64,000 bases of DNA. Source: Prochlorococcus sp. AG-355-B18 (GTDB lineage Bacteria; Cyanobacteriota; Cyanobacteriia; PCC-6307; Cyanobiaceae). The position numbers and the translations under genes are program-made. The DNA lies in NCBI GenBank assembly GCA_003280965.1, contig QCDI01000001.1, positions 96,001-160,000 on the forward strand. The letters are read 5' to 3'. This document shows, piece after piece, positions 1 to 10,766 of this stretch (position 1 is the first letter of the stretch; each line of letters begins with the position of its first letter). A model generated the notes under the pieces. It ran no database searches. It was not told where the DNA came from and saw only the letters and a list, made by a program, of their open reading frames with translations.

Positions 1-273
1 TACTGCCAAAAAACAAAACATCAAAGCTAATTCACCTGATAAAACTTTTCTTAAGGAGGCTTTATCTTTAATGGAACTACAAATAATCAATAAAAAACCT
101 ATTCCTAAATTACTAGCAGCTACAACATCTGCAGTACCTCTAACAAGAAGCAATGTTTCACTTGAAGCGTTGCCTGCAATAGTTTCCACTGAAAAAATTA
201 GTAGAGAAATAATTAACAACCCCAACAGGATATGAAGCGCTCCAGTAGTTTTTAAAATATTTTTTAACTTCAT
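1..273 (-). CDS. Hypothetical integral membrane protein, truncated by the left window edge
   Basis: Not in ORF track. ATG at 273-271, open to base 1: MKLKNILKTTGALHILLGLLIISLLIFSVETIAG...; several hydrophobic segments; start directly follows the ~49-bp repeat. Confidence 0.75.
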   Translation of the reverse strand, partial: MKLKNILKTTGALHILLGLLIISLLIFSVETIAGNASSETLLLVRGTADVVAASNLGIGFLLIICSSIKDKASLRKVLSGELALMFCFLAV

Positions 274-320
274 AAAAAAAGGAGCTTATTTCCCCCTTAT
301 TGTAGATCGACTGTCAAATT
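271..320 (-). repeat. ~49-bp intergenic repeat, copy 1
   Basis: Reverse complement AATTTGACAGTCGATCTACAATAAGGGGGAAATAAGCTCCTTTTTTTATG, near-identical to 4521-4569. Confidence 0.95.
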
Positions 321-371
321 AATCTGTTTAAAAATATCTACTGTTAATATGAATTAAATTTTTAAATTAAG

Positions 372-629
372 TTGGTTTACTTTAAGAGAGAGTTTATTAA
401 ATCCCTTAAAATAAAAGGCTCTATATTTTTAATTGTGATAATTATTGGATTTATTTACTCAAGTCCAAAGTCAAGGGTAATTATTGCAAATTCTTTTACT
501 TCTTCAGCCAAATTTTTAAATGAAACTGTCGAAACAAAAAATAAAGATAGTTGGTTTTCTGAACCAGATTTCGTATTCAGTATTAGGTTAAGATTACGAG
601 AATTTTTAAGAGGAACTCAAAGAGGTTGA
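372..629 (+). CDS. Small hypothetical protein with one predicted TM segment
   Basis: 85-aa ORF, TTG start uncertain; hydrophobic IFLIVIIIGFIY. Confidence 0.55.
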   Translation: MVYFKREFIKSLKIKGSIFLIVIIIGFIYSSPKSRVIIANSFTSSAKFLNETVETKNKDSWFSEPDFVFSIRLRLREFLRGTQRG

Positions 630-672
630 AAAAGAAATAATTGCCCCTTATTGTAGATCGACTGTCAATAAT
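629..672 (-). repeat. ~49-bp intergenic repeat, copy 2 (3' end diverged, no ATG)
   Basis: Reverse complement contains TTATTGACAGTCGATCTACAATAAGGGGCAATTATTTCTTTTT. Confidence 0.9.
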
Positions 673-782
673 TGAAGTCTTACGTTGACTTATATAGCTC
701 AAAAAAACGTCACATAGAGTTTGACGATTATGGAAAATTTAGACGAAATGCTGCTAAAACTTAAAAAGTTATTACTTATAAA

Positions 783-1052
783 ATGTTTTTAGGTGCATCT
801 GTATTTTTTATTGTTGGATTCCCGATTCTTGGAATATTTATTCTTCTGGCAATGATGCTAAACAAGTTAGATAGTATAAGTAGATCAAATAAATTACTTC
901 TTGCCTATATGGTTAATCCTGATTGTATGTTGGAGGCTACTAATTCCGATGTAGTTATTAGTAATGCAATGAAAGCGGCTAAAAAATATAAAGGTGAATC
1001 TGCACAAGTAAAAGAATTTTTTAACCAAATAAACCCACTTATTGTTTTTTAG
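783..1052 (+). CDS. Small hypothetical protein with N-terminal TM helix
   Basis: 89-aa ORF, ATG start, hydrophobic first ~26 residues. Confidence 0.7.
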   Translation: MFLGASVFFIVGFPILGIFILLAMMLNKLDSISRSNKLLLAYMVNPDCMLEATNSDVVISNAMKAAKKYKGESAQVKEFFNQINPLIVF

Positions 1053-1252
1053 TTCCCATTGGGAATAGTTCGGGAAGTGGTGTTTTGTTATTCATACCAA
1101 TAGATATAGTCCTATTCCTTCCCGATAGATAGAGATAGGGGTATTTTTTAGGAGCTATCTCTATGTCATGGGAACTAGGAACACTAAATTAGTTGATATA
1201 ACTACTGTTTGATGACTTCCCTATAGTATTTACTGGGTAATGATCGGGAACT
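1051..1252. repeat. Cluster of GGGAA/TTCCC repeats plus a 10-bp inverted repeat; candidate replication origin of the left element
   Basis: GGGAA at 1061, 1072, 1170, 1246; TTCCC at 1053, 1119, 1217; ATAGAGATAG 1129-1138 / CTATCTCTAT 1155-1164; located at the helicase 3' end. Confidence 0.5.
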
Positions 1253-2433
1253 GATAGTTTTTGTATATCTTTTGGATTTAAAGCATAAACACCTTTTTTA
1301 GGTCTTCTTAGCTTTTTACTATTAACCATATTGCCAAGCGTATTATCTACAGTTTTTCTTGCTGCGGAAGCAATATTAAATGCAGTAGTGACAATATCAG
1401 CCCTTCTTACTTCTGTTTGTCCTTGTTTATAGAAATCGCTCATAATTTCAAGAATTACATCATTGCAACTTCCCACTATTTCTTTATCGTCTTCTAGTAC
1501 CATTTCGCACTCTTCCAATCTATAAGTAACACGCCTTCTAGGATCTATATTTGCTGCTCTATCTTTCTTAAATTCAGCAGTTACCCCATTTTGTACCTTT
1601 GTATCTTCATCAATGTTTGGTTTTAAACTAATAACCATTGATGGTTCTTCAGCCCAACTTTTAGCCCCTGCATGAGCACCTCTAGCAGTTCCGTCATGGC
1701 TCAAAATTTCAATATGAGCATTATTAGGTACAGCAATAACGTCTCTTATGACCCTTATAAAATCTCTTACCTGTACATTATCTAAGTAGTTAAATGCACC
1801 AGAACTAATACTTTTTGCACTATCAATAACCACATAATCAATACCTTCATATTGGACAAAATTTTCTAATTTAATAATTCCATTGATATTTCCATACAAT
1901 GCCTGTTGTCCTTGTTTAGAGTCAAAACCCCATACAAATATTTTTTGTTCTTCACCTTCTTTCAATACAGCATCATTTTCAATTCCTAAGTCATACATGG
2001 CTTTTTTAAAAGTACTTACCCCACCATCTGTACAAATAAATAAACTTTTACCTTTTTTACATGGTGAACTTCTATCTAAAATATTTTCACCTTTTGCAAA
2101 TTTATAGGCTTTATATAATGCGTGGGTTGTTTTGCCAGAACCATAAGAACCATAGGTTAAAGAAACATCACCTTTTATTAACCACCCGTCCATTAAATAG
2201 GTAAGAGGTTCAACAGTTGTTAGGTCAATAGATTTTTTTAAAGCAGGTCTAAAATCTGACTTCATGTGATAAAAATATTTCATCACTTTTCTTGTTATTT
2301 GATCGTCAGAATATTTAAACCTTTGTTTTATCAAGCTATAAATTCTTGCTTCTTCATCTTCATCTACCTGTCTAATTGCAGCTAATAAATCATCAATTAA
2401 AAAGGTAATTTTCTCTTCTTCATAAGAGTTCAT
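1189..2433 (-). CDS. AAA_25 / RecA-fold (RepA-like) replicative helicase with probable C-terminal winged helix
   Basis: Walker A GSYGSGKT, Walker B VVIDS, ILSH and KDR motifs; C-terminal ...TVDNTLGNMV...LRRPKKGVY. Confidence 0.8.
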   Translation of the reverse strand: MNSYEEEKITFLIDDLLAAIRQVDEDEEARIYSLIKQRFKYSDDQITRKVMKYFYHMKSDFRPALKKSIDLTTVEPLTYLMDGWLIKGDVSLTYGSYGSGKTTHALYKAYKFAKGENILDRSSPCKKGKSLFICTDGGVSTFKKAMYDLGIENDAVLKEGEEQKIFVWGFDSKQGQQALYGNINGIIKLENFVQYEGIDYVVIDSAKSISSGAFNYLDNVQVRDFIRVIRDVIAVPNNAHIEILSHDGTARGAHAGAKSWAEEPSMVISLKPNIDEDTKVQNGVTAEFKKDRAANIDPRRRVTYRLEECEMVLEDDKEIVGSCNDVILEIMSDFYKQGQTEVRRADIVTTAFNIASAARKTVDNTLGNMVNSKKLRRPKKGVYALNPKDIQKLSVPDHYPVNTIGKSSNSSYIN

Positions 2434-2697
2434 TTAGACCCCCATTTTCTCATAGGAAGCAATCTTCTTGGCAGCTACATCTTCAGGTACATTTTCAGAT
2501 TCTTTTGTTTTATCAATCTGCCATTGTCGAATAGCTCTTACATTCCAAAGAACATTGCTCTTAGGTTTACCAGTTATATATAGCCAATGTTCACCAGCTA
2601 TAAATTCATTGGAGTTTTTAAGTTCCCATAATAAAGATTGGCTTACGCCAATAAGTTCTGATGTCTTTGCGACACCATGCCATTCAGTTAAGTTCAT
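2434..2697 (-). CDS. Excisionase-like (MerR/AlpA-type HTH) DNA-binding protein
   Basis: Likely start MNLTEW at 2697; HTH-like VAKTSELIGVSQSLLWELK; abuts helicase via TAAATG; resembles 9847-10107. Confidence 0.65.
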   Translation of the reverse strand: MNLTEWHGVAKTSELIGVSQSLLWELKNSNEFIAGEHWLYITGKPKSNVLWNVRAIRQWQIDKTKESENVPEDVAAKKIASYEKMGV

Positions 2698-3058
2698 TAG
2701 ATTAGTTATGTAATATCGGTAGCCCTTGCACAACTAACTCTTTGCCCGAACACACAGTAAATAAGTAGAGGAGTTTTCAGTTGATAGTTCGGTGGCGTTA
2801 AAACGCTAGCTGATTCTGACGGAACTCTTGCCCCCTTCTTTTTCCGATTTAACGGGAGGTTCTTTAAGACAAGTCGATCGCTACGAAGCCCCTCTGATGA
2901 CTTCTTTCTATTCAATATTATTAGGCAATAATTTAGAACTGTCTAGAAGTTTGTGGGAAAGGCAAGAAGCATAGGGGTATACCCGTTAGATATAGTCCAG
3001 TTTCTTTTACTAGCTATCCCATTCTTATCCCACAACCAAAATTTAAAATTCAAAGCAA

Positions 3059-3085
3059 TAAAAAAGAGAGTCTGGGTAACTCTCT
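3059..3085 (-). terminator. Intrinsic terminator downstream of the tRNA-Pro 3' fragment
   Basis: Minus strand AGAGAGT-TACCCAG-ACTCTCT followed by a T run. Confidence 0.6.
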
Positions 3086-3107
3086 AGTATAACTTGGTTT
3101 TTAAGAG

Positions 3108-3153
3108 TCGGGGCGACAGGATTCGAACCTGCGACCTAGTGCTCCCAAAGCAC
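3108..3153 (-). repeat. att site: 46-bp duplicate of tRNA-Pro 3' end
   Basis: TCGGGGCGACAGGATTCGAACCTGCGACCTAGTGCTCCCAAAGCAC identical to 10693-10738. Confidence 0.97.
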
Positions 3154-3200
3154 TGGACACCCCTAGATGAGCACTGGTGTTACAAGCTATAGCTAATTAA

Positions 3201-3265
3201 TTGCGTAGTATTGCGTAATTTGTATAGACAAACTATTATAAATATGACATAAATATGACATAAAT
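3201..3265. promoter_or_regulatory. Putative integrase arm-type / RDF binding repeats, left end
   Basis: TTGCGTA at 3201 and 3211; TAAATATGACA at 3239 and 3250; both motifs recur at 10595-10657. Confidence 0.65.
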
Positions 3266-3269
3266 TTAA

Positions 3270-4520
3270 ATGATTGATTGGACTGCTAGTTTACAAAAAA
3301 GAGCCAGGAAAATTGCAAGAGAATGTGGCTTAGTTGGTCTTACTCTTATAAAGAATGGTAAGAAGGCACAAGTTAAATATAGAAAGGCTGAAGGTTCAAA
3401 AGTTATATCTCAGGAAACAGTAATGCTTGAACATGAGTGGATTCAAGCTAATGAAGATGATATTTACACCAGATTCAGAAATATATGCAAATTAATGGGA
3501 GAAAGTGGTCATAACTTAAAAGCTGCTGCTGTTATTGCTAAAGGTAATGCACCAAAAGAAGGAAAAGATTGGAAGAATATATTAGAAAGTTTTAAAGATC
3601 AGAAAACCAACTTTGGTAATGCAATAGCTGAGAAGACTTGGAAGAAAGATTATAAGTCTTGCGTAATGGCTGTAGAAGTTATGGCTCAAAAGAATCCTCC
3701 TACTAATGCAGCAGATTTAATAGATGTATGTTTAAAAGATTTTGATGCTGGTAGTAGAACAAGACAGATAAGAGCTAGAGCATTAAGTCAGTTTTTAACT
3801 CATGCAGTTACTAGAGAGAATCTTCCTGATACTTGGCTACCTCCAAAAGATTTAAAACAACATATTGGAAGGGCTAAAAAAGGAGAACTTAAAACCCAGA
3901 AGGGCGACCCATTTAGTGAAGATACCCAAATATTAGATTTATTGGCATCATTACCAACCAATGCAGAATTTAAGCGTGATTCTGAATCTGCTACTAAATG
4001 GTTTAATGCTCTTTGCATGATGAGTGAATTAGGTTTAAGACCTAATGAAGTTGGGAAGATGGTTGTTAAAAAAGACCCAGCTACTAAAGAATATTATTGG
4101 TGGTGTACTTATGAGAAGAAAGCTGGTGGTGGTACAACTAAACCTAGAAAAGTTGAGCCATTACCTCTAATAGATAGAGACGGAAAAGAAGTTCAATGGA
4201 ATTTATTAGAAAGATTTAGAAGTAACCTACTTCCATTACCAGAGAAGATGGATGGAGAATCTTGTAAGGATTATTTAAGTAGAAGGCAAGGTTGGAAAGA
4301 TTTAAAAGAAATGATGCTAAAGAAAGAAGGTGCAAATATTGTTCCTTATTCATTCAGGCATTACTACAGCCTTCGAGGTCATATTGCAGGCATTGATTCT
4401 GGAAGTATGGCTAAGAGCATGGGGCATTCAATAGAAGCCCACCATAGAAACTATCCTTATTCTTCAGAAGCAAGTACTACTAACGCATTTAAAAGAGCTA
4501 GAGAAAGAGCTACGGCTTAA
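3270..4520 (+). CDS. Tyrosine recombinase / site-specific integrase
   Basis: Catalytic pattern LGLRPNE ... YSFRH ... MGHS ... HHRNY; 416 aa; adjacent to att site. Confidence 0.9.
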   Translation: MIDWTASLQKRARKIARECGLVGLTLIKNGKKAQVKYRKAEGSKVISQETVMLEHEWIQANEDDIYTRFRNICKLMGESGHNLKAAAVIAKGNAPKEGKDWKNILESFKDQKTNFGNAIAEKTWKKDYKSCVMAVEVMAQKNPPTNAADLIDVCLKDFDAGSRTRQIRARALSQFLTHAVTRENLPDTWLPPKDLKQHIGRAKKGELKTQKGDPFSEDTQILDLLASLPTNAEFKRDSESATKWFNALCMMSELGLRPNEVGKMVVKKDPATKEYYWWCTYEKKAGGGTTKPRKVEPLPLIDRDGKEVQWNLLERFRSNLLPLPEKMDGESCKDYLSRRQGWKDLKEMMLKKEGANIVPYSFRHYYSLRGHIAGIDSGSMAKSMGHSIEAHHRNYPYSSEASTTNAFKRARERATA

Positions 4521-4569
4521 TAATTGACAGTCGATCTACAATAAGGGGGAATTAGCTCCTTTTTTTATG
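4521..4569 (+). repeat. ~49-bp intergenic repeat, copy 3
   Basis: TAATTGACAGTCGATCTACAATAAGGGGGAATTAGCTCCTTTTTTTATG; fills the gap from integrase stop to next ATG. Confidence 0.95.
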
Positions 4570-4845
4570 TCTCTTGAAACTACTGTTTTTACATTCAAAA
4601 TTAGTGTCCCTTATGAAGAATGGGCTGCTGTTTATGACAGTGAAGAAAATATAAAAATGATGAAAGAAACTGGAATGACATGCTTATACAAAGGTGTAAA
4701 TAAAGATGATCCAACCAGTGTAATTGTCATTGAGCAGGGTGAAGAAGGTAAAGCAATAGCTATGTTTAAAGATCCAGAAGTTAAACCTTTAATTGAGAGT
4801 GCAGGTCATATTTATGATTCGACTGTTATATCAAGCTACTTTTAA
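4567..4845 (+). CDS. DUF3764-like small protein
   Basis: ETTVFTFKIS..EEW...D, LYKGVNKDDP..VIVIEQ, IESAGHIYDSTVI match my recollection of this Prochlorococcus island family. Confidence 0.8.
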   Translation: MSLETTVFTFKISVPYEEWAAVYDSEENIKMMKETGMTCLYKGVNKDDPTSVIVIEQGEEGKAIAMFKDPEVKPLIESAGHIYDSTVISSYF

Positions 4846-4892
4846 TTGACAGTCAATCTAAAATAAAGGGCAATTAGCTCCTTTTTTTTATG
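4843..4892 (+). repeat. ~49-bp intergenic repeat, copy 4
   Basis: TAATTGACAGTCAATCTAAAATAAAGGGCAATTAGCTCCTTTTTTTTATG; first TAA is the upstream stop, last ATG the downstream start. Confidence 0.95.
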
Positions 4893-5180
4893 GAAGCAAT
4901 AGTTATATTATTTTTTTTAGTTCCAATTTTATTTATTGTTTTTCTTGTTTCAGACCCTTTTAAACGTCAACGAGAATTGGCTGCTAATAGAAAGTGGGAT
5001 GGATGGATTAAGGACAGCAAAAAAAATCCTAAGACTTTTTATAAACTTACAAAAGAAGAACAATTGAGTATGGCAAGGTCAAATAGATACGGAACAAATG
5101 AACAAATTGGGAAAAGAGGTGGAAGATATGAAACAAGATATTCTAAAAAAACTGGTAAACCATATAGACATTATTTTTAA
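4890..5180 (+). CDS. Small membrane-anchored basic hypothetical protein
   Basis: N-terminal TM helix; basic C-terminus GKRGGRYETRYSKKTGKPYRHYF. Confidence 0.75.
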   Translation: MEAIVILFFLVPILFIVFLVSDPFKRQRELAANRKWDGWIKDSKKNPKTFYKLTKEEQLSMARSNRYGTNEQIGKRGGRYETRYSKKTGKPYRHYF

Positions 5181-5197
5181 ATGAAACGCTTACTACT
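5175..5197 (+). repeat. 23-bp direct repeat, copy A
   Basis: TTTTAAATGAAACGCTTACTACT identical to 5595-5617. Confidence 0.92.
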
Positions 5198-5600
5198 CCC
5201 ACTAATAGCAGCCCTCGCTTTACCTACTGCTGTTAATGCTGAAACTTTTTATTTAAAATGCACAACCTTAAAAGGTAGAGGAAATCCTGATAAGCCATTT
5301 AAAACCTTTGCAGATCCAACAGTTGATAATCACCAATTCACATTAAATGAAGATAATCAATCTGCGGTTTACTACCTTGCTGAAAAAGGCACTTCTATAA
5401 AAATAGATAATGTCAACTTCAACCAAGAAAGCATTGATATGAGTTATAAATCAGGAAAAAATTTCTCAGGAGATACTTTTAAGACTATTTCGATTAATAG
5501 ACTAACTGGAGGATTAGTCATGGAATCTGATTTAGGTTTTCAAGTAATGAGGTTTGAGGGTCAATGTAAAAAATCAGAGCCAAAGAAAACTTTGTTTTAA
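5181..5600 (+). CDS. Secreted hypothetical protein with MKRLLL-type signal peptide
   Basis: Signal peptide MKRLLLPLIAALALPTAVNA; two Cys near the ends of the mature part; INRLTG motif. Confidence 0.8.
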   Translation: MKRLLLPLIAALALPTAVNAETFYLKCTTLKGRGNPDKPFKTFADPTVDNHQFTLNEDNQSAVYYLAEKGTSIKIDNVNFNQESIDMSYKSGKNFSGDTFKTISINRLTGGLVMESDLGFQVMRFEGQCKKSEPKKTLF

Positions 5601-5617
5601 ATGAAACGCTTACTACT
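5595..5617 (+). repeat. 23-bp direct repeat, copy B (starts a MKRLLLA* stub, 5601-5624)
   Basis: Identical to 5175-5197; offset 420 bp equals the length of gene 5181-5600. Confidence 0.92.
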
Positions 5618-5622
5618 TGCAT

Positions 5623-5656
5623 AAAAAAGAGGGTAAAGCTGCACCAAAACCCTCTT
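5623..5656 (-). terminator. Terminator-like hairpin
   Basis: AAGAGGGT 5627-5634 / ACCCTCTT 5649-5656; T run follows on the minus strand. Confidence 0.55.
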
Positions 5657-5896
5657 GAATACCACACCGTCAAAATCCAATGGCTACATTGAAGTGACTC
5701 ACTTTTATGATAGCTAGAATATTATTTTTGTAGTATAATTTCAATAATTAAATATTATTTAGTGACTTTAAATAAACAAATTAAATATAAACAATTTAAC
5801 GAAGTTTATCAAGTCAAAGCCTGCAAAGTTGGGCAACTATATGATACTTTATCCAACCCACAAGCTAGAAGATTAATTAAGGAGGTTTCCTAAAAG

Positions 5897-6292
5897 ATGG
5901 ATTTAAACGAATTAATTGATAAAACCCACTTCGATTATGAACAAAACGAAACAAAAGCAAAGCAGTTAGAAGAACGAATTTTGAAAGTGCCTGGAATGTT
6001 AAAAGAGTATCTTCCTAAGAGAAAATATGGGGAAAATTATAAAGGCGACCAACTAGGTGTAACTGCATCATCTTTAATAGTTAAAGGAGATAAAGCCCTA
6101 GCAGCTTTCTTAGGACTTGACCTTAATTATTGGAAAGAAAAAGCAAAAGCTGAAGAAGAACGTGAAGCCTACTTAACCGCCTTTAAAGAAAAGACAGAAG
6201 CACTAAGACAAAAGAATCAGGAACAAAGAATGGCTAGAGAAAAAAGAACTATATGGAATCAAACTCATGGTGTAGATCAAAGGAGGTTTTAA
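5897..6292 (+). CDS. Hypothetical protein with charged coiled-coil C-terminus
   Basis: 131-aa ORF, strong AAGGAGG RBS at 5879-5885; first gene of a tightly coupled operon. Confidence 0.8.
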   Translation: MDLNELIDKTHFDYEQNETKAKQLEERILKVPGMLKEYLPKRKYGENYKGDQLGVTASSLIVKGDKALAAFLGLDLNYWKEKAKAEEEREAYLTAFKEKTEALRQKNQEQRMAREKRTIWNQTHGVDQRRF

Positions 6293-6631
6293 ATGCGTTT
6301 TGCAAGACAGCACCCTTATTACGGTTGGTTGTTTTTAGAACCTGCCGATTATCGAAGGATATATAACCAACTTATTCAAATGAGAGATGCAGATATAAAG
6401 AAGGGGGATAACTCCTCAGGGTTTCCCTCTGGTTTTCCTGAGTGGTGTGAAGATGATATTAAAGAATTAGCCAAAGAAGATAAATATAAAAAACGCATAG
6501 CTACCCACTTAGAGCAATTAAAAATTTCTATTGAAAATAGAAGAAGAGAACTTGCTAACACCTACCTAGCTGAAGAACTTAAAAAGATGGAAACCAAATC
6601 TGAATTTATAGAAAGTTTAGTAGGTTCTTAA
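6293..6631 (+). CDS. Hypothetical protein
   Basis: 112-aa ORF abutting upstream gene (TAAATG). Confidence 0.75.
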   Translation: MRFARQHPYYGWLFLEPADYRRIYNQLIQMRDADIKKGDNSSGFPSGFPEWCEDDIKELAKEDKYKKRIATHLEQLKISIENRRRELANTYLAEELKKMETKSEFIESLVGS

Positions 6632-6843
6632 TGCACACAGATAAACCAACTATTTCTTTAGAGGTTCAAGCCTTATCAGAATGTTTAAAGGTTATCGCAG
6701 AAAATGATTACACCTATACAGCGTGTCCTTTGACCATCTCCCTTTTTGCTACTTCTTGGGTCTGGACTTGTAGAGATATTATGGAGAACTATTTATGGCC
6801 AGCAGAAGATTTATTGGAGCTACAACATGGCGATAGTAAGTAG
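6631..6843 (+). CDS. Hypothetical protein
   Basis: 70-aa ORF, TAATG overlap with upstream stop. Confidence 0.65.
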   Translation: MHTDKPTISLEVQALSECLKVIAENDYTYTACPLTISLFATSWVWTCRDIMENYLWPAEDLLELQHGDSK

Positions 6844-7192
6844 AGCAGAACGAAAAAGACGTAGATGTGTTGCTCTCGAGAGATTAACCTCTGGCATGGG
6901 GGTGTCTGAAGTAACCAGAACGCTAGTCAGGGACTACGGAATTACTCGTAGAAGTGCGAATCTGGATATCAACTGGGCAAGTGCTCAAATGATAAAGAAC
7001 CTCGAGAAGTACGAGAAAAGTGATCTGTTGGCATGGCTTGTGACCCAGACTGAGAGGGTATATATTAAAGCCCTGGAATCTAACCAATTAAGTGCAGCTA
7101 TAGGAAGTTTGAATTTAATGCACAAGATTACGATTGAAGCAGCAGATAAAGGAACAGGCAAATATAGATTTCATGGAAACTATAAACATTAA
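6827..7192 (+). CDS. HTH-containing helical protein, possible terminase small subunit
   Basis: Start reassigned to ATG 6827 (GGAG at 6816); N-terminal HTH-like GMGVSEVTRTLVRDYGITRRSA, helical C-terminus KALESNQLSAAIGSLNLMHKI; function inferred from pattern and context only. Confidence 0.45.
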   Translation: MAIVSRAERKRRRCVALERLTSGMGVSEVTRTLVRDYGITRRSANLDINWASAQMIKNLEKYEKSDLLAWLVTQTERVYIKALESNQLSAAIGSLNLMHKITIEAADKGTGKYRFHGNYKH

Positions 7193-7335
7193 TCTCAGGT
7201 GTCTTGGACACGGTTTTCAAAAAACTGGACACAATTCTGCTTATTTAATCTCAAAGTAAGACGTCAAAACCATTGTAAATTCGTTAATCAGTCTCATTAT
7301 TTATTAGGTGTACTGTCCAACTGACAATACTTTTT

Positions 7336-7506
7336 TGTGGCATTGTGGCTGTGGCACTAGGGGTTTTATATATTTACTACCCTTTTCCTATCCATATCTA
7401 TATATCTATTATTTATATAAAATATATGCCACAAGTGGATAAAACCTACTAAACCCAGTTAGGGAGGTTGATTTAGTCTGTGGCATTATCTGTGGCAGTT
7501 TGTGGC
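7336..7506. repeat. TGTGGC iterons around an AT-rich core; putative replication origin
   Basis: TGTGGC at 7336, 7344, 7350, 7479, 7491, 7501; inverted GCCACA at 7428; AT-rich 7364-7427. Confidence 0.75.
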
Positions 7507-8834
7507 AGTCTTCTATAGATAGAAGTCTTTTCAGTTTTAGTTGTATCATCTAATTCAAACCTAGCTCTCTCTCCTTTTATCCATCCTAATTGTTGAAGTC
7601 TGGTTGCTATTGCTCTTGTATATTTAGCGTCTTTAGTCTTTTGTTGTATCTCGCTATGAATTAATCCTTCATTTAATAATTTAACTACAACTCTTATACA
7701 AATATCATCCCTTTTATAGTTATCCAATGCTTCTTCCATCTCTTCTAGTAATGGGTCATGGGCGGCAAATTGCATGGCCTGATTATTAAGGTCAACTATC
7801 TCTTTCTTGTCATACCACCATCTAACTCCATCTAAATAGTCATTCTTGGCTGAAGCAAATATCTGGTCTCTATGTTCTTGTACCCATTCAGCATTAATCT
7901 TATTGGCACTTATTATTGGAAACCTTCTATTCCCCGTAGGGTCTTTTATAAAGTTTCTTTTATTAGTAGTACCTACGAGAATACACTTTCTATCTTTAAG
8001 AGAGTTGGTCTTTTCATGGGGGTATCTAAAATTATCCTTTTGCTCAGACATAAAGTGCTTAATATTCTCTGAGCTTTGCATACCCATAATGCGATCTATT
8101 TCTCCCCAGTTATGAAACCAAGCAGAGTGCAGGGTAATTAATGTGTCCTTATGATTATTACCACCTATGCTCCCTAGACTTGAGCAATACCATTCTCCTC
8201 CTAATGCTTCCCAGATAGCTTCCTTACCTTCTCCCTGTGAGTCAGTTTGGAGTATTAATGCTGTATCTACCTTGCATGGCTGCTTATAAGTACGAGCTAC
8301 AGCAGCAATCATTTGTCTCTGGAAATGTACTGAATGTTGAGGGTTTTTACTGCCGAAGATATGGAAGGCAATATTATTCCAGGTGTCTTCAGGTAATGGG
8401 TCATTACATCCATTTAGATAGTGTTCTACTGGGTTATATTTATTTCTTTCAGAGAGTAATACAACTACATTCCTCGCATTATTTTCTTTAATATCTAAGC
8501 GATTTTTTTCGGCTAGTTCAAGATAAAAGGTACTTAAGAAGTTACCTGAGATGGGCTTACCATTTAACTCTATCTTTCCAGTAATAGTATTCAGTTTGAA
8601 ATCGTATATATCCCCAATAATTTGAACCAACTTATCTTTTCTTGGTCGGATAAGGCTTTCAACTGCAACTTCTCCTTTTGGCCTTTTCTGTGGTTTGGTT
8701 GTTGGTTTTTCTTCAACAACCTCCGCATCTACCTTCTCAATAAAACTTTCTGTTGCTGTTGGTTCTTTAGAAACAATCTGAGCATCAAACTTTCTTAAAA
8801 AGGGTTCTAAATTTGGGTTATTCAAGTTACTCAT
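7473..8834 (-). CDS. VapE (virulence-associated protein E) family ATPase/helicase
   Basis: YNPVEHYL, KVDTALILQTDSQGEGKE (P-loop variant), VGTTN, DPTGNRRF motifs. Confidence 0.85.
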   Translation of the reverse strand: MSNLNNPNLEPFLRKFDAQIVSKEPTATESFIEKVDAEVVEEKPTTKPQKRPKGEVAVESLIRPRKDKLVQIIGDIYDFKLNTITGKIELNGKPISGNFLSTFYLELAEKNRLDIKENNARNVVVLLSERNKYNPVEHYLNGCNDPLPEDTWNNIAFHIFGSKNPQHSVHFQRQMIAAVARTYKQPCKVDTALILQTDSQGEGKEAIWEALGGEWYCSSLGSIGGNNHKDTLITLHSAWFHNWGEIDRIMGMQSSENIKHFMSEQKDNFRYPHEKTNSLKDRKCILVGTTNKRNFIKDPTGNRRFPIISANKINAEWVQEHRDQIFASAKNDYLDGVRWWYDKKEIVDLNNQAMQFAAHDPLLEEMEEALDNYKRDDICIRVVVKLLNEGLIHSEIQQKTKDAKYTRAIATRLQQLGWIKGERARFELDDTTKTEKTSIYRRLPQTATDNATD

Positions 8835-9850
8835 TTTGATTTAGGTCTCCAACCATGTTGTTGAGCTATACGGATAAAAGTGCCTGCCTTTATATGCCCC
8901 TTCCTTGATCTGACTACTTGTTCTACATTCCATCCACTTACTTCACCACTTGGGCTATGAGCTTCTAATAGTTGTATGGCATCAGATTCTGAATAACCCA
9001 TATCAATTAACAGTTCAGTAAAACCCCAAGCCATATTTCTATATTCCTCATAAGTGTTATTTCCTTGAACCCTTGGAGGAATATGATCTAAAGCAACTAT
9101 TATTTCTTCAATTTTCCAATCACTTTGAACTACTTTTGGTTTATTAGGTTTTATTTCTAAAGGTTCAGGTTTTTCTGGTTCTGGTAAACAATCCTCTATA
9201 TCTTTATAGGAATATTCTTTTTGAGTGACGTTGATTAACCTAACTCGTTCTGTATGTTTGCCTTGTTTATTGACGTAATAAAACCCAGGTAAACGCATAA
9301 CCCTAGAAGGGTTTTTAATCATTGGGTCTGACTTGGTGTAATCAACAAGACGTTTCTGAATAGGCTTCCAGATTAGTTGTGATACAGGCTTTTTAAGTAC
9401 CAAATAACTATGAATACTGTTACCTGTTTCGACTTGGAAGGTAGGTTCTGGAAGATTTAATTCCTTCCATTTATAGACTTGTTCTTTTTTTGGAATATCA
9501 TCCCATTCAAAAAAGAAAGCACGACATAGAGTAATTTCAATGTCTTTTGTACCACCATCATTAACGACAAAGTAAATTCCCCTTCCTTCTAAATGAGCAT
9601 TAATAATTGGATCCCAATTTATGTAAATGCCATGACCATTAGGCTTATACTTTGGAAATTTAAATTCTCTGGCTGATAAGCCACCACCTTTATAGGTAAT
9701 GGCTCTCAACTCTGTATCTTCACAATTTTTATGGAGCAATTCCTCTAAAAAGAAAGAAGCGTAATTAAATGCTCCTCCTTTTAGAGTTCTAGCTAGAATA
9801 GTTTTAGAAGTAACTGAACTAGCCCGCCCCGAAAAGGCGGGTTTTTTCAT
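8831..9850 (-). CDS. RepB-type (AEP superfamily) DNA primase with PriCT-2-like C-terminal domain
   Basis: GIYFVVN, RAFFFEWDD, VETGNSIHSY, NPSRVMRLPG; C-terminal GTFIRIAQQHGW; ATGA overlap with helicase. Confidence 0.85.
   Translation of the reverse strand: MKKPAFSGRASSVTSKTILARTLKGGAFNYASFFLEELLHKNCEDTELRAITYKGGGLSAREFKFPKYKPNGHGIYINWDPIINAHLEGRGIYFVVNDGGTKDIEITLCRAFFFEWDDIPKKEQVYKWKELNLPEPTFQVETGNSIHSYLVLKKPVSQLIWKPIQKRLVDYTKSDPMIKNPSRVMRLPGFYYVNKQGKHTERVRLINVTQKEYSYKDIEDCLPEPEKPEPLEIKPNKPKVVQSDWKIEEIIVALDHIPPRVQGNNTYEEYRNMAWGFTELLIDMGYSESDAIQLLEAHSPSGEVSGWNVEQVVRSRKGHIKAGTFIRIAQQHGWRPKSK
9822..9847 (+). terminator. Intrinsic terminator, antisense to the primase start
   Basis: GCCCGCC-CCGAAAA-GGCGGGT followed by TTTTT. 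Confidence 0.6.
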
Positions 9851-10107
9851 GCAGAAGCAACCTCCTTTTTGTTTTTAAAAGGTGCTGTTTCCATAGACTT
9901 TGCTCTTGCACTTGCAAGCCTATTTAAGACTTCATCGCAATTTTCAAGGTCATATAAGGTGTGACTATTTGGGTTTTGTGGAATTTTTCTTCTCCAACAA
10001 GTGCCCTCAATAAGCAAACCTTTATTTCTCATGGTTAGTAAGGTTCGTTCTGAGATACCTAACCAATCTGAAGCCACTTTTTGAGTGACCATTTTTTTCG
10101 CAGCCAT
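9847..10107 (-). CDS. Excisionase / recombination directionality factor-like HTH protein
   Basis: VTQKVASDWLGISERTLLTMRNKG MerR/Xis-type HTH; GGAGG RBS for next gene; ATGA overlap with primase. Confidence 0.7.
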   Translation of the reverse strand: MAAKKMVTQKVASDWLGISERTLLTMRNKGLLIEGTCWRRKIPQNPNSHTLYDLENCDEVLNRLASARAKSMETAPFKNKKEVASA

Positions 10108-10125
10108 TTTATGTGGTGGCTAAAT

Positions 10126-10341
10126 CTATTTCTCTATATTTCGTAAGTGACGAGGTATTGCAGTTTCATGCTTTTCCTCAATCAAGCCTTTCTCTCTGGC
10201 ATCTAAATAAGCATCTGCTAGTTCTTGGGTTCTTCCTCTATTGAACTTTGCAGTAGTATCAATAGTTGCTGTATATGCCTTTTTTGGAAGGCGTACAACA
10301 TGACCATTAACCTTTAGATATTTATCAGATTTCTTACTCAT
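10126..10341 (-). CDS. Small basic hypothetical protein, first gene of the replication operon
   Basis: 71-aa ORF co-oriented with xis-primase-helicase. Confidence 0.65.
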   Translation of the reverse strand: MSKKSDKYLKVNGHVVRLPKKAYTATIDTTAKFNRGRTQELADAYLDAREKGLIEEKHETAIPRHLRNIEK

Positions 10342-10505
10342 ATTTTAAATAGGGGAGACAATTTCAAACCAATTTCTTGGTTTTAGTTATCCCATGCTCC
10401 CCTTACATTTCTTCAGGGTAGTCCAAGCTAGAGAGGGCTTGGCGACTCTTTCAAAATAGGCGGCGTTTACCTGACCTAAAGTCCAGAATCGAATAATTAC
10501 TATTT

Positions 10506-10543
10506 ACTATAAGGGTAAATTGTGAATGTGCAAGACAATTCAC
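10506..10543 (-). promoter_or_regulatory. Putative sigma70 promoter with palindromic operator
   Basis: Minus strand TTGCAC-16 nt-TATAGT; GTGAAT 10522-10527 / ATTCAC 10538-10543 straddle the -35. Confidence 0.45.
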
Positions 10544-10594
10544 GAAATTAATTTTCCTAGTCCCCAACTGGGATATCGAATATCTACAAGTATC

Positions 10595-10657
10595 AACGCG
10601 AATTAACGCAAAGCTACGCAAATGACATAATTATGACATAAATGCAAATATGTCATA
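10595..10657. promoter_or_regulatory. Putative integrase arm-type / RDF binding repeats, right end
   Basis: ACGC(G/A) at 10-bp spacing (10596, 10606, 10616); ATGACATAA at 10622 and 10633; inverted ATATGTCATA at 10648. Confidence 0.65.
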
Positions 10658-10692
10658 TTCTCTAAATACCCCAGACTCATTGCTACAACTGA

Positions 10693-10766
10693 TCGGGGCG
10701 ACAGGATTCGAACCTGCGACCTAGTGCTCCCAAAGCACCCGCGCTACCAAGCTGCGCCACGCCCCG
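10693..10766 (-). tRNA. tRNA-Pro (TGG)
   Basis: CGGGGCGTGGCGCAGCTTGGTAGCGCGGGTGCTTTGGGAGCACTAGGTCGCAGGTTCGAATCCTGTCGCCCCGA; cloverleaf, anticodon TGG. Confidence 0.97.

Follow-up and report, generated by a model that had tools for sequence, protein, structure and literature searches.

A genus-wide repeat at gene starts in Prochlorococcus: anatomy, reassortment of flanks and a possible role as a terminator-promoter adaptor

The four copies and the genes around them

The stretch analysed here, referred to as the window, is 64 kb of contig QCDI01000001.1 of Prochlorococcus sp. AG-355-B18, with a G+C content of 31 %, from a genome of 1.58 Mb that is 99.35 % complete. Our subject is a repeat of about 47 bases, four copies of which lie between window positions 271 and 4892. 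Read 5' to 3', it consists of a 16-base box, ATTGACAGTCGATCTA, a -10-like hexamer, TAnnnT, that is opened by the last two bases of the box, a 6-7 bp G+C hairpin, a T run and a start codon. A preliminary description, made from the letters alone, had seen in it a stop-to-start linker that loads single genes into satellite elements in the manner of an integron. The element is real, strongly constrained and genus-wide, its host genus appears to be high-light Prochlorococcus, and what makes it interesting is its anatomy, its statistics and the near-invariance of the 16-base box.

A 25-base core, TTGACAGTCGATCTACAATAAGGGG, was scanned over the window with up to 3 mismatches allowed, and exactly four matches were obtained, at 293-317 and 644-668 on the minus strand and at 4524-4548 and 4846-4870 on the plus strand, where they had been claimed. 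None of 100 dinucleotide shuffles contained any match (0 expected by chance). A profile built from the four copies found no more of them between window positions 5,000 and 64,000.

Copies 3 and 4 are complete and on the plus strand. Copy 3 (4523-4569) begins 2 bases past the stop codon of an integrase gene (TAA, 4518-4520) and comprises the box ATTGACAGTCGATCTA (4523-4538), the -10-like hexamer TACAAT (4537-4542), a hairpin (4543-4562), a T run (4560-4566) and an ATG (4567-4569) that opens an open reading frame (ORF) of 92 amino acids (aa). The first base of copy 4 (4845-4892) is the last A of the TAA that ends this ORF (4843-4845). Its box, ATTGACAGTCAATCTA (4845-4860), carries one change that makes the 13-base dyad ATTGAC-A-GTCAAT (4845-4857) perfect, as previously described, and is followed by the -10-like hexamer TAAAAT (4859-4864), a hairpin with the arms AAAGGGC/GCTCCTT (4865-4883), a T run (4882-4889) and an ATG (4890-4892) that opens a 96-aa ORF. 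Because copies 3 and 4 abut the start and the stop of the 92-aa ORF, respectively, each filling the gap from a stop to a start, they bracket exactly one gene, as had been stated.

The other two copies are on the minus strand. Copy 1 (271-318) is also complete, with the box TTTGACAGTCGATCTA at 318-303, TACAAT at 304-299, a hairpin at 298-278, a T run, and an ATG at 273-271 that opens an ORF (273 to 1) running off the window edge; in the whole genome, this ORF is 131 aa long. Copy 2 (629-669) is truncated. The box (669-654) and TACAAT (655-650) are retained, the 3' arm of the hairpin has decayed and a start codon is absent. This copy adjoins the stop codon (627-629) of a convergent ORF (372-629), and the same junction occurs at two other places (flank group D8). 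The final ATG is thus a gene start in three copies (1, 3 and 4), and a generic terminator scan rated the hairpin and T run ahead of it as terminator-like at copies 1 and 3; the gene starts and the presence of a hairpin with a T run had been noted before.

The integrated element that includes copies 3 and 4 has a tRNA-Pro gene (10693-10766, minus strand) at one end and, at the other, 46 bases (3108-3153, minus strand) that repeat the 3' part of this gene perfectly and are the true att copy. The element contains the integrase gene, small cargo ORFs, a VapE-like gene (7473-8834) and a primase-like gene (8831-9850). The integrase (3270-4520, plus strand, 416 aa) is a tyrosine recombinase of the tycheposon type, which matches the Pfam family Phage_integrase at E 1.7e-4, under the curated cut-off. 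The gene between copies 3 and 4, cassette gene A (4567-4845, plus strand, 92 aa), belongs to DUF3764, and members of its family were found behind the repeat at 5 places, with different upstream flanks. Copies 1 and 2 lie in the stretch to the left, together with an AAA_25 ATPase gene (1189-2433, minus strand). Two mobile-element-like stretches, 1-3100 and 3108-10766, stand side by side at the tRNA-Pro.

Anatomy of the repeat and its position relative to genes

The anatomy was examined in 99 unique copies, which were found with the profile in this genome and in 20 island stretches of other genomes. As the 20 stretches were picked for their richness in copies, the conservation and clustering figures are biased upward. 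Positions 1-16, the box, are conserved at 88-100 %, and 48 of the 99 copies measure 46-48 bases, counted from where the box begins to the G of the ATG. The hexamer, which the preliminary description does not include, takes the forms TAAAAT, TACAAT, TAACAT and TAAACT, with T15, A16 and T20 each retained in 97/99 copies and positions 17-19 being either A or C. A fixed T, A and T around a variable middle is, as far as sequence can tell, the conservation pattern of a -10 hexamer.

The box also includes a perfect TTGACA, 7 bases ahead of TAnnnT. Its positions 0-14 form an imperfect dyad, GATTGAC-A-GTCGATC, the conservation of which is lopsided (G at position -1 in 54/99 copies, C14 in 96/99). There is no Shine-Dalgarno sequence in the element. 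All three frames are closed inside it in 65/99 copies (26 % of shuffles), so that an upstream ORF would usually end safely within.

The hairpin begins 0-2 bases past the hexamer. When each copy was folded separately, an energy of -4 kcal/mol or lower was obtained for 62/99 copies, against 8 % of 4,950 shuffles. Two main stem types, AAGGrGC/GCTCCTT and AGAGGG/CCCTCT, are found with compensating changes: the loop is closed by a C-G pair in 27 copies and by a G-C pair in 28, and the third stem pair is G-T in 16, A-T in 13 and G-C in 28. RNAalifold, applied to a MAFFT alignment of 46 copies, found no structure because the two stem types are misaligned by sequence. A T run of at least 4 follows in 83/99 copies, and the layout of an intrinsic terminator (G+C stem, short loop and T run) is therefore present by sequence. 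At one locus (L014:12539-12596), two copies stand face to face around a single hairpin, in the order box, hexamer, hairpin, reverse hexamer, reverse box, and form a palindrome of roughly 58 bases without a start codon. This may have arisen by a crossover inside the palindromic stem.

The distance to the gene behind the element is fixed. The ATG lies at positions 44-46 in 48/99 copies, and an ORF of at least 30 aa starts with ATG or GTG at positions 41-57 in 58/99, compared with 0/99 at an upstream control offset. The placement of the repeat relative to start codons is thus not random across genomes. The 58 downstream proteins fall into 33 families, 23 of which have no Pfam match; the Pfam families represented include DUF3764, DUF3804, DUF3303, DUF805, TPR, cupin, 2OG-Fe(II) oxygenase and a lipoprotein signal. 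The notion of a portable unit fixed to gene starts consequently stood, for at least 33 unrelated gene families. Four examples were found of copies that have no hairpin and yet have a start codon at positions 43-45.

The link to the gene in front is loose. A stop codon lies within -16 to +31 in 30/99 copies; of 71 copies in which an open frame of 50 codons or more ends nearby, those outside these 30 have the stop 28-174 bases upstream. The whole gap from stop to start is filled in only about one third of cases. The stop-to-start linker of the preliminary description is therefore correct in its downstream half, the tie to the start codon, and not in its upstream half, as the upstream stop is abutted in 30/99 copies only. 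With a fixed link to the start codon and a loose one to the upstream stop, the element belongs to the gene behind it.

A different view is that the element is a module of the upstream gene, made up of its 3' untranslated region and terminator, with the next gene close by merely through the compactness of the genome and expressed by read-through. The canonical hairpin and T run would be at home in such a module, a co-directional ORF of at least 70 aa ends no more than 200 bases upstream in 40/99 copies, with only a divergent ORF in 6/99, and certain conserved copies lack a gene downstream and point at a convergent one. We nevertheless consider this view improbable, since it is the downstream start that is at a fixed distance (48/99 at 44-46), while the upstream stop ranges from +31 to -174 and abuts in 30/99. 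Furthermore, the four copies that lack a hairpin still have their start codon, the invariant T, A and T of TAnnnT with its variable middle would be left unaccounted for, and 47/99 copies have no ORF of at least 70 aa close upstream on either strand. The orientation of the upstream neighbour does not separate a promoter reading from a terminator reading.

Distribution, reassortment of flanks and relation to integrases

When the profile from the four copies was iterated over the whole genome, about 20 copies were found at E <= 1e-3. They are clustered at C1 84-101 kb, C1 246 kb, the start of C2, the end of C11 and C4 117 kb, and on three small contigs. Of 151 genomes in the genus, 148 contain a 24-base pattern when up to 3 mismatches are allowed, usually with 2-15 matches each, and the reversed control pattern has 0 matches in every one of those genomes. 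The 16-base box (up to 1 mismatch) was found in 8/8 genomes of the genus but in only 3/193 genomes from 63 other genera of the family, with a single match in each of the three. In the complete genome G096, 11 of the 15 matches listed lie in 1,370-1,395 kb and 3 in 1,692-1,699 kb. Copies were judged from such clustering and from the mobile-element context to be in variable regions, namely genomic islands with tycheposon cargo among them, where they precede small accessory genes.

The search of 50,697 phage records, which reports only matches of at least roughly 19-20 bases, gave 0 matches. Among 2.9 million viral contigs, the exact 16-base box is present in 8, in 1-2 copies each, and the full element in only 3; in the other 5 the box stands alone in unrelated, partly G+C-rich context, which is the chance level. 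The full copies on short IMG/VR contigs include L070 (5.7 kb) and L068/L069 (one contig of 6.6 kb). One IMG/VR copy lies 4 bases past an ORF that by eye resembles PhoH and is followed by a 41-aa gene family known from islands, and another stands behind a DUF3764-like gene.

It is very improbable, and largely refuted, that the islands were colonized by a selfish small mobile element of the MITE or REP kind or by a promoter of a phage RNA polymerase. The repeat is multi-copy, short, hairpin-bearing and clustered, as a selfish element might be, and its unbroken 22-base block of conservation, with G-rich bases behind it, is reminiscent in layout of the promoters of single-subunit polymerases. However, no terminal inverted repeats or target duplications are visible, there is no Y1/RAYT transposase in this 99%-complete genome, and the placement is strictly before start codons. 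A REP/BIME element was rejected because PF01797 was not found in this genome (99.35 % complete), the positive-control search having matched 6/14 known genomes. A phage RNA-polymerase promoter was ruled out by the lack of matches, at the length limit given above, in the phage records and by the scarcity of the box and the full element in viral contigs, where the boxes that stand alone are at chance level.

A known RNA family was ruled out as well. Rfam gave no match over any copy at the gathering score and none covering a copy at E <= 5. A sub-threshold snoRNA match at 4447-4553 (E 4.7), which overlaps the start of copy 3, was judged to be noise. A tRNA-derived junction was also rejected: in a blastn-short comparison with the 37 tRNAs, the best matches were of 10-13 bases (E 0.09-0.35) and none was at a tRNA 3' end. 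In the type-A hairpin, loop and 3' arm together (GGGCAATTAGCTC, 4868-4880 in copy 4) are identical to the first 13 bases of tRNA-Val/tRNA-Ile at 12 of 13 positions (E 0.35 against the 37 tRNAs), which may be chance.

The sequences on either side of the copies were compared over 120 bases each, the threshold for sharing being the maximum of the null distribution. The 4,851 pairs of copies divide into 108 that are alike upstream only, 72 that are alike downstream only, 8 that are alike on both sides and 4,663 that are alike on neither, and hence 180 of the 188 flank-sharing pairs are alike on one side only. The repeat is therefore the joint of reassorting modules, as had been suggested. For example, gene family D1 was found behind three upstream flank groups and both hairpin types, and upstream group U1 stands before at least 6 different downstream sequences. 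Reassortment takes place at the repeat, and the flank data leave the enzyme unspecified.

Within the element, the homology in pairs alike upstream only ends at positions 16-22 in 30 of 44 cases and at positions 31-44 in 10 of 44; this was an ungapped walk, and the result is less sharp owing to the two hairpin types and the variable length of the T run. The hairpin part is bound to neither flank. Integron-like capture, as put forward in the preliminary description, is not supported, since homology breaks at several places inside the repeat and there is no attC-like feature.

Group U1 consists of the partial tRNA-Pro and the region ahead of the start of the integrase gene in the window, with the integrase itself absent. 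Such a junction, with about 100 bases ahead of the integrase start retained, followed by the repeat and various cargo genes, was seen in four other genomes; upstream flanks of this type are at L025:13768, L027:1929, L028:4928, L028:2468, L014:14438 and L014:12596. These loci look like the remains of an excision that removed the integrase from its start up to the repeat.

Among 285 genomes of the genus, 56 have homologues of the integrase. We compared 30 such loci from genomes other than the one studied here (33-100 % identity to the integrase in the window), and at 21 of them a box lies 0-3 bases past the integrase stop codon or overlaps it. This count becomes 23/30 if two boxes with 1-2 mismatches, which were recognized by eye and missed by the profile, are included. 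However, the 30 loci are not independent, because they represent only about nine lineages. The sequence behind the box varies among the loci. None of the three outcomes named beforehand as speaking against the preliminary description was thus observed, namely a random placement relative to start and stop codons, an invariant gene order behind homologous integrases and a lack of polymorphism that breaks at the repeat. Seven metagenome contigs carry an integrase that is at least 49 % identical over the matched stretch. On these, one or more small ORFs come first and the repeat lies 190-620 bases past the stop codon in 5/7; one contig has three repeats in a row. No repeat was found with 5 metagenome relatives at 41-43 % integrase identity. 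In the genome studied here, 2 of the 4 recombinase genes have a repeat behind them.

The repeat is independent of the integrase and is also abundant in genomes without an island integrase. In addition to the difference between 148/151 genomes for the repeat and 56/285 for the integrase family, the 24-base pattern has 15 matches in the complete genome G096 and 9 in the complete genome G015, each of which has a sole Phage_integrase match, at 790 kb in G096 and at 495 kb in G015, that is 154-580 kb from the nearest repeat match and 135-850 kb from the main arrays. The specificity for satellites and their integrases that was originally proposed thus had to be given up.

These figures also bear on the idea that the box is the core site of the tycheposon integrase, or of a recombinase acting in trans, which moves single-gene cassettes. 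The information content of the box is about equal to that of a recombinase site, its positions 0-14 are an imperfect dyad, and homology breaks most often right past it. The box is found at the integrase stop in 21/30 loci even though the homologues are only 33-100 % identical, 2/4 tyrosine-recombinase genes in this genome are followed by a repeat, and all 5 of the complete genomes checked have one conserved recombinase of about 390 aa that could act in trans. Such a site-specific cassette system is improbable all the same. The repeat is far more widespread than the integrase family and, in G096 and G015, lies far from the sole Phage_integrase gene, and the loci with a box at the integrase stop reduce to the nine or so lineages mentioned above. 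The spacer of the dyad is 1 base, whereas the spacers of tyrosine-recombinase core sites are 6-8 bases, and the left end is poorly conserved (G at -1 in 54/99, C14 in 96/99). Moreover, the element is fixed to the gene start, whereas attC sits at the 3' end of a gene, and there are breakpoints at positions 31-44 too.

We note that a tyrosine-recombinase gene of about 390-404 aa is conserved as one copy per genome (G000:C2:132847-133269, G096, G015, G021, G136 and G147). It lies away from the repeat clusters and is the sole recombinase common to all of the repeat-carrying genomes checked. It is unlikely, though slightly less so than the site-specific cassette system, that the box is the recognition site of a core-encoded protein acting in trans, e.g. 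this recombinase or a regulator. The islands would then be a chromosome-wide cassette system that does without a neighbouring integrase, in which each cassette has its own terminator-promoter adaptor and is exchanged or switched via the box.

Interpretation and comparison with known systems

On balance, we think it somewhat probable that the element is a gene-front adaptor in which a terminator and a promoter overlap and that it also serves as a homology patch for the shuffling of cassettes, much as PeSL elements do. From the sequence features, we infer that the hairpin and T run would act as an intrinsic terminator and insulate the gene from upstream transcription, e.g. from the integrase gene. 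TAnnnT would be the -10 element, with transcription starting about 7 bases on, in the 5' arm or the loop of the hairpin. A transcript that starts inside the hairpin would lack the complete hairpin, and would thus escape termination and enter the gene. Its leader would be roughly 20 bases long, U-rich and without a Shine-Dalgarno sequence. Promoters of Prochlorococcus often have a -10 element only. As the same 16-base box is present at dozens of loci within and between genomes, recombination could reassort the modules there. The simplest mechanism would be recombination through short homology, without catalysis by the neighbouring integrase, and single-gene cassettes would be shuffled as a result. 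The expression-plus-recombination unit of the preliminary description is largely borne out, and its integron-like, integrase-driven side is not.

A leader without a Shine-Dalgarno sequence agrees with a passage in PMC5607370, which cites Voigt et al. 2014. Three motif strings were not found in the 12 of 22 supplement files of PMC5607370 that were searched.

Parts of the stretch in the window were matched by 18 RNA runs, all as contigs of metatranscriptomes. In four metatranscriptomes, many contigs share the repeat and then diverge into other genes, and the summed depth over the repeats is high; such contigs cannot show transcript starts, ends or levels, and the libraries may contain DNA.

Several observations weigh against an adaptor of this kind. 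A generic sigma-70 scan found no promoter at any of the four copies, and a -35 element at a workable distance is absent, TTGACA being only 7 bases before the hexamer. The only RNA data are the assembled contigs, from which transcript ends cannot be read. No ORF of at least 30 aa is at the expected place in 41/99 copies, and several conserved copies (D3, D8 and copy 2) face the 3' end of a convergent gene, where a promoter would produce antisense RNA only. The hairpins are short and, at -6 to -10 kcal/mol, weak for terminators, and the forward fold is barely better than the reverse (-5.4 and -4.7 kcal/mol, 50 and 39 copies, the copies not being independent). The upward bias of figures from profile-found copies in copy-rich stretches applies here too. 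Lastly, a 16-base block conserved at 88-100 % is far beyond what a promoter needs.

Two other placements of a promoter were rejected. A -10 hexamer 16-19 bases past TTGACA is not present by eye in either hairpin type, since the candidates GGCAAT and GGATAA and their neighbours lack the key A and T. If GTCGAT were read as sigma-28-like, the transcript would, by reasoning only, begin with the whole terminator.

We suspect that a sequence-specific protein keeps the box near-invariant. It could be that the box is the operator of a dedicated regulator and that the copies mark a regulon of island genes, responding for example to stress or to phage attack. This would be compatible with the adaptor, and it accounts for the box and leaves the hairpin aside. 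A near-invariant block directly before the -10-like hexamer is centred near -20 by the geometry inferred here, where a bound protein would block or reshape the polymerase, and the same block stands ahead of 33 unrelated gene families and is kept genus-wide. Island genes of Prochlorococcus respond jointly to stress and phage infection. However, the analysis yielded no candidate regulator, operators tend to be more degenerate than a block with 88-100 % at all 16 positions, and the asymmetric conservation is a poor fit to a dimeric regulator. We therefore regard an operator as possible but rather unlikely.

The repeat itself has probably been published. A 'Prochlorococcus repeat element 1' (PRE1) of about 48 nt, reportedly described by Malmstrom and colleagues in 2013, is said to be multi-copy and found only in the islands of high-light Prochlorococcus, and to have been proposed as an aid to recombination. 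We presume that the element studied here is very probably PRE1. The likeness lies in the 47-48 bases from box to ATG, the restriction to the genus and the clustering. The motif strings of the element are absent from the relevant papers in the searchable literature. The points for which that literature gave no match are the overlap of the hexamer with the terminator hairpin, the fixed distance to the start codon, the flank statistics, the position at the integrase stop and the invariance of the box.

The closest working analogue is the PeSL of T4-type phages. According to passages in Arbiol et al. 2010 (PMC2839356) and Comeau et al. 2014 (PMC4122927), a PeSL combines a promoter with a terminator stem-loop, and recombination between copies shuffles single genes. 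PeSL are described there as intergenic, reaching from the upstream stop to the downstream ATG, and as lying before ORFans in variable (hyperplastic) regions. The repeat resembles them in having a start codon and an ORF of at least 30 aa in 58/99 copies, an abutting upstream stop in 30/99 and 23 of 33 downstream families without a Pfam match. By sequence, its stem-loop with compensating variants would be a putative terminator, and the flanks (180/188 flank-sharing pairs discordant) support a shuffling of genes at the copies. However, PeSL are, in the same passages, conserved over about 100 bp and have a Shine-Dalgarno sequence and a complete sigma-70 promoter, with 17 bases between TTGACA and TATAAT, whereas the repeat has a -10-like hexamer only, no Shine-Dalgarno sequence, a length of about 47 bases and, in addition, the invariant 16-base box. 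It also resides in a cellular chromosome, with no match at the searchable length among the 50,697 phage records. PeSL are stated to have been shown to act as promoters and as terminators and to give rise to mini-circles, while the repeat is known from sequence alone. It thus falls outside the definition of a PeSL on three counts, as it has no -35/-10 promoter, lacks a Shine-Dalgarno sequence and does not reside in a phage.

With integrons, the repeat shares arrays of small, unrelated and mostly co-directional genes with a repeated hairpin element between them, and an integrase is often at the head of the array. An attC site stands at the 3' end of a promoterless cassette, is recognized as folded single-stranded DNA, has a GTTRRRY core and needs IntI and attI. 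In contrast, the repeat is at the 5' end of the gene, brings a putative promoter of its own and has no GTT in its consensus, and its arrays occur in genomes without a nearby integrase (G096 and G015).

The right integrated element matches the layout given for tycheposons in the main text of a preprint by Hackl et al. (bioRxiv 10.1101/2020.12.28.424599), with a tRNA-Pro and its perfect 46-base partial copy, a tyrosine recombinase, VapE-like and primase-like genes, and copies 3 and 4 in the cargo. The repeat differs in that it is neither an attachment site nor derived from a tRNA. It is not mentioned in that main text, where the word 'repeat' occurs only in 'tandem repeat junctions' and in a cited title. 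The same source states that about a quarter of Prochlorococcus genes are in islands, which hold most of the flexible gene pool.

The traffic of single genes into and out of islands is only partly explained by tycheposons. An insulated expression signal combined with a short homology shared by dozens of sites would explain how an orphan gene is expressed on arrival, and would also explain differences between cells in the order of island genes. If the box binds a protein, it would offer a handle on the regulation or exchange of island genes in the most abundant phototroph of the ocean.

The cargo of the right element continues beyond copy 4 with cassette gene B (4890-5180, plus strand, 96 aa) and cassette gene C (5181-5600, plus strand, 139 aa), which has a signal-peptide-like start. 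Neither has a Pfam family, and they meet in a TAA-ATG junction without the repeat in between. A second junction repeat was seen here, in which a stop codon is directly followed by ATGAAACGCTTACTACTTGCACC (window 5178-5203 and 5598-5624). It is present in 21 copies (up to 4 changes) in this genome, including some at G000 C1 94-96 kb and 247 kb and on C2, C11 and C18. In 6 copies, an ORF of 95-294 codons whose start is signal-peptide-like begins at this repeat, and in 15 the frame is shut after 7-49 codons, in 10 of these within 13 codons. In 5 of its copies, the 16-base box follows at +36 to +38, and the same composite forms joints in contigs from marine RNA libraries.

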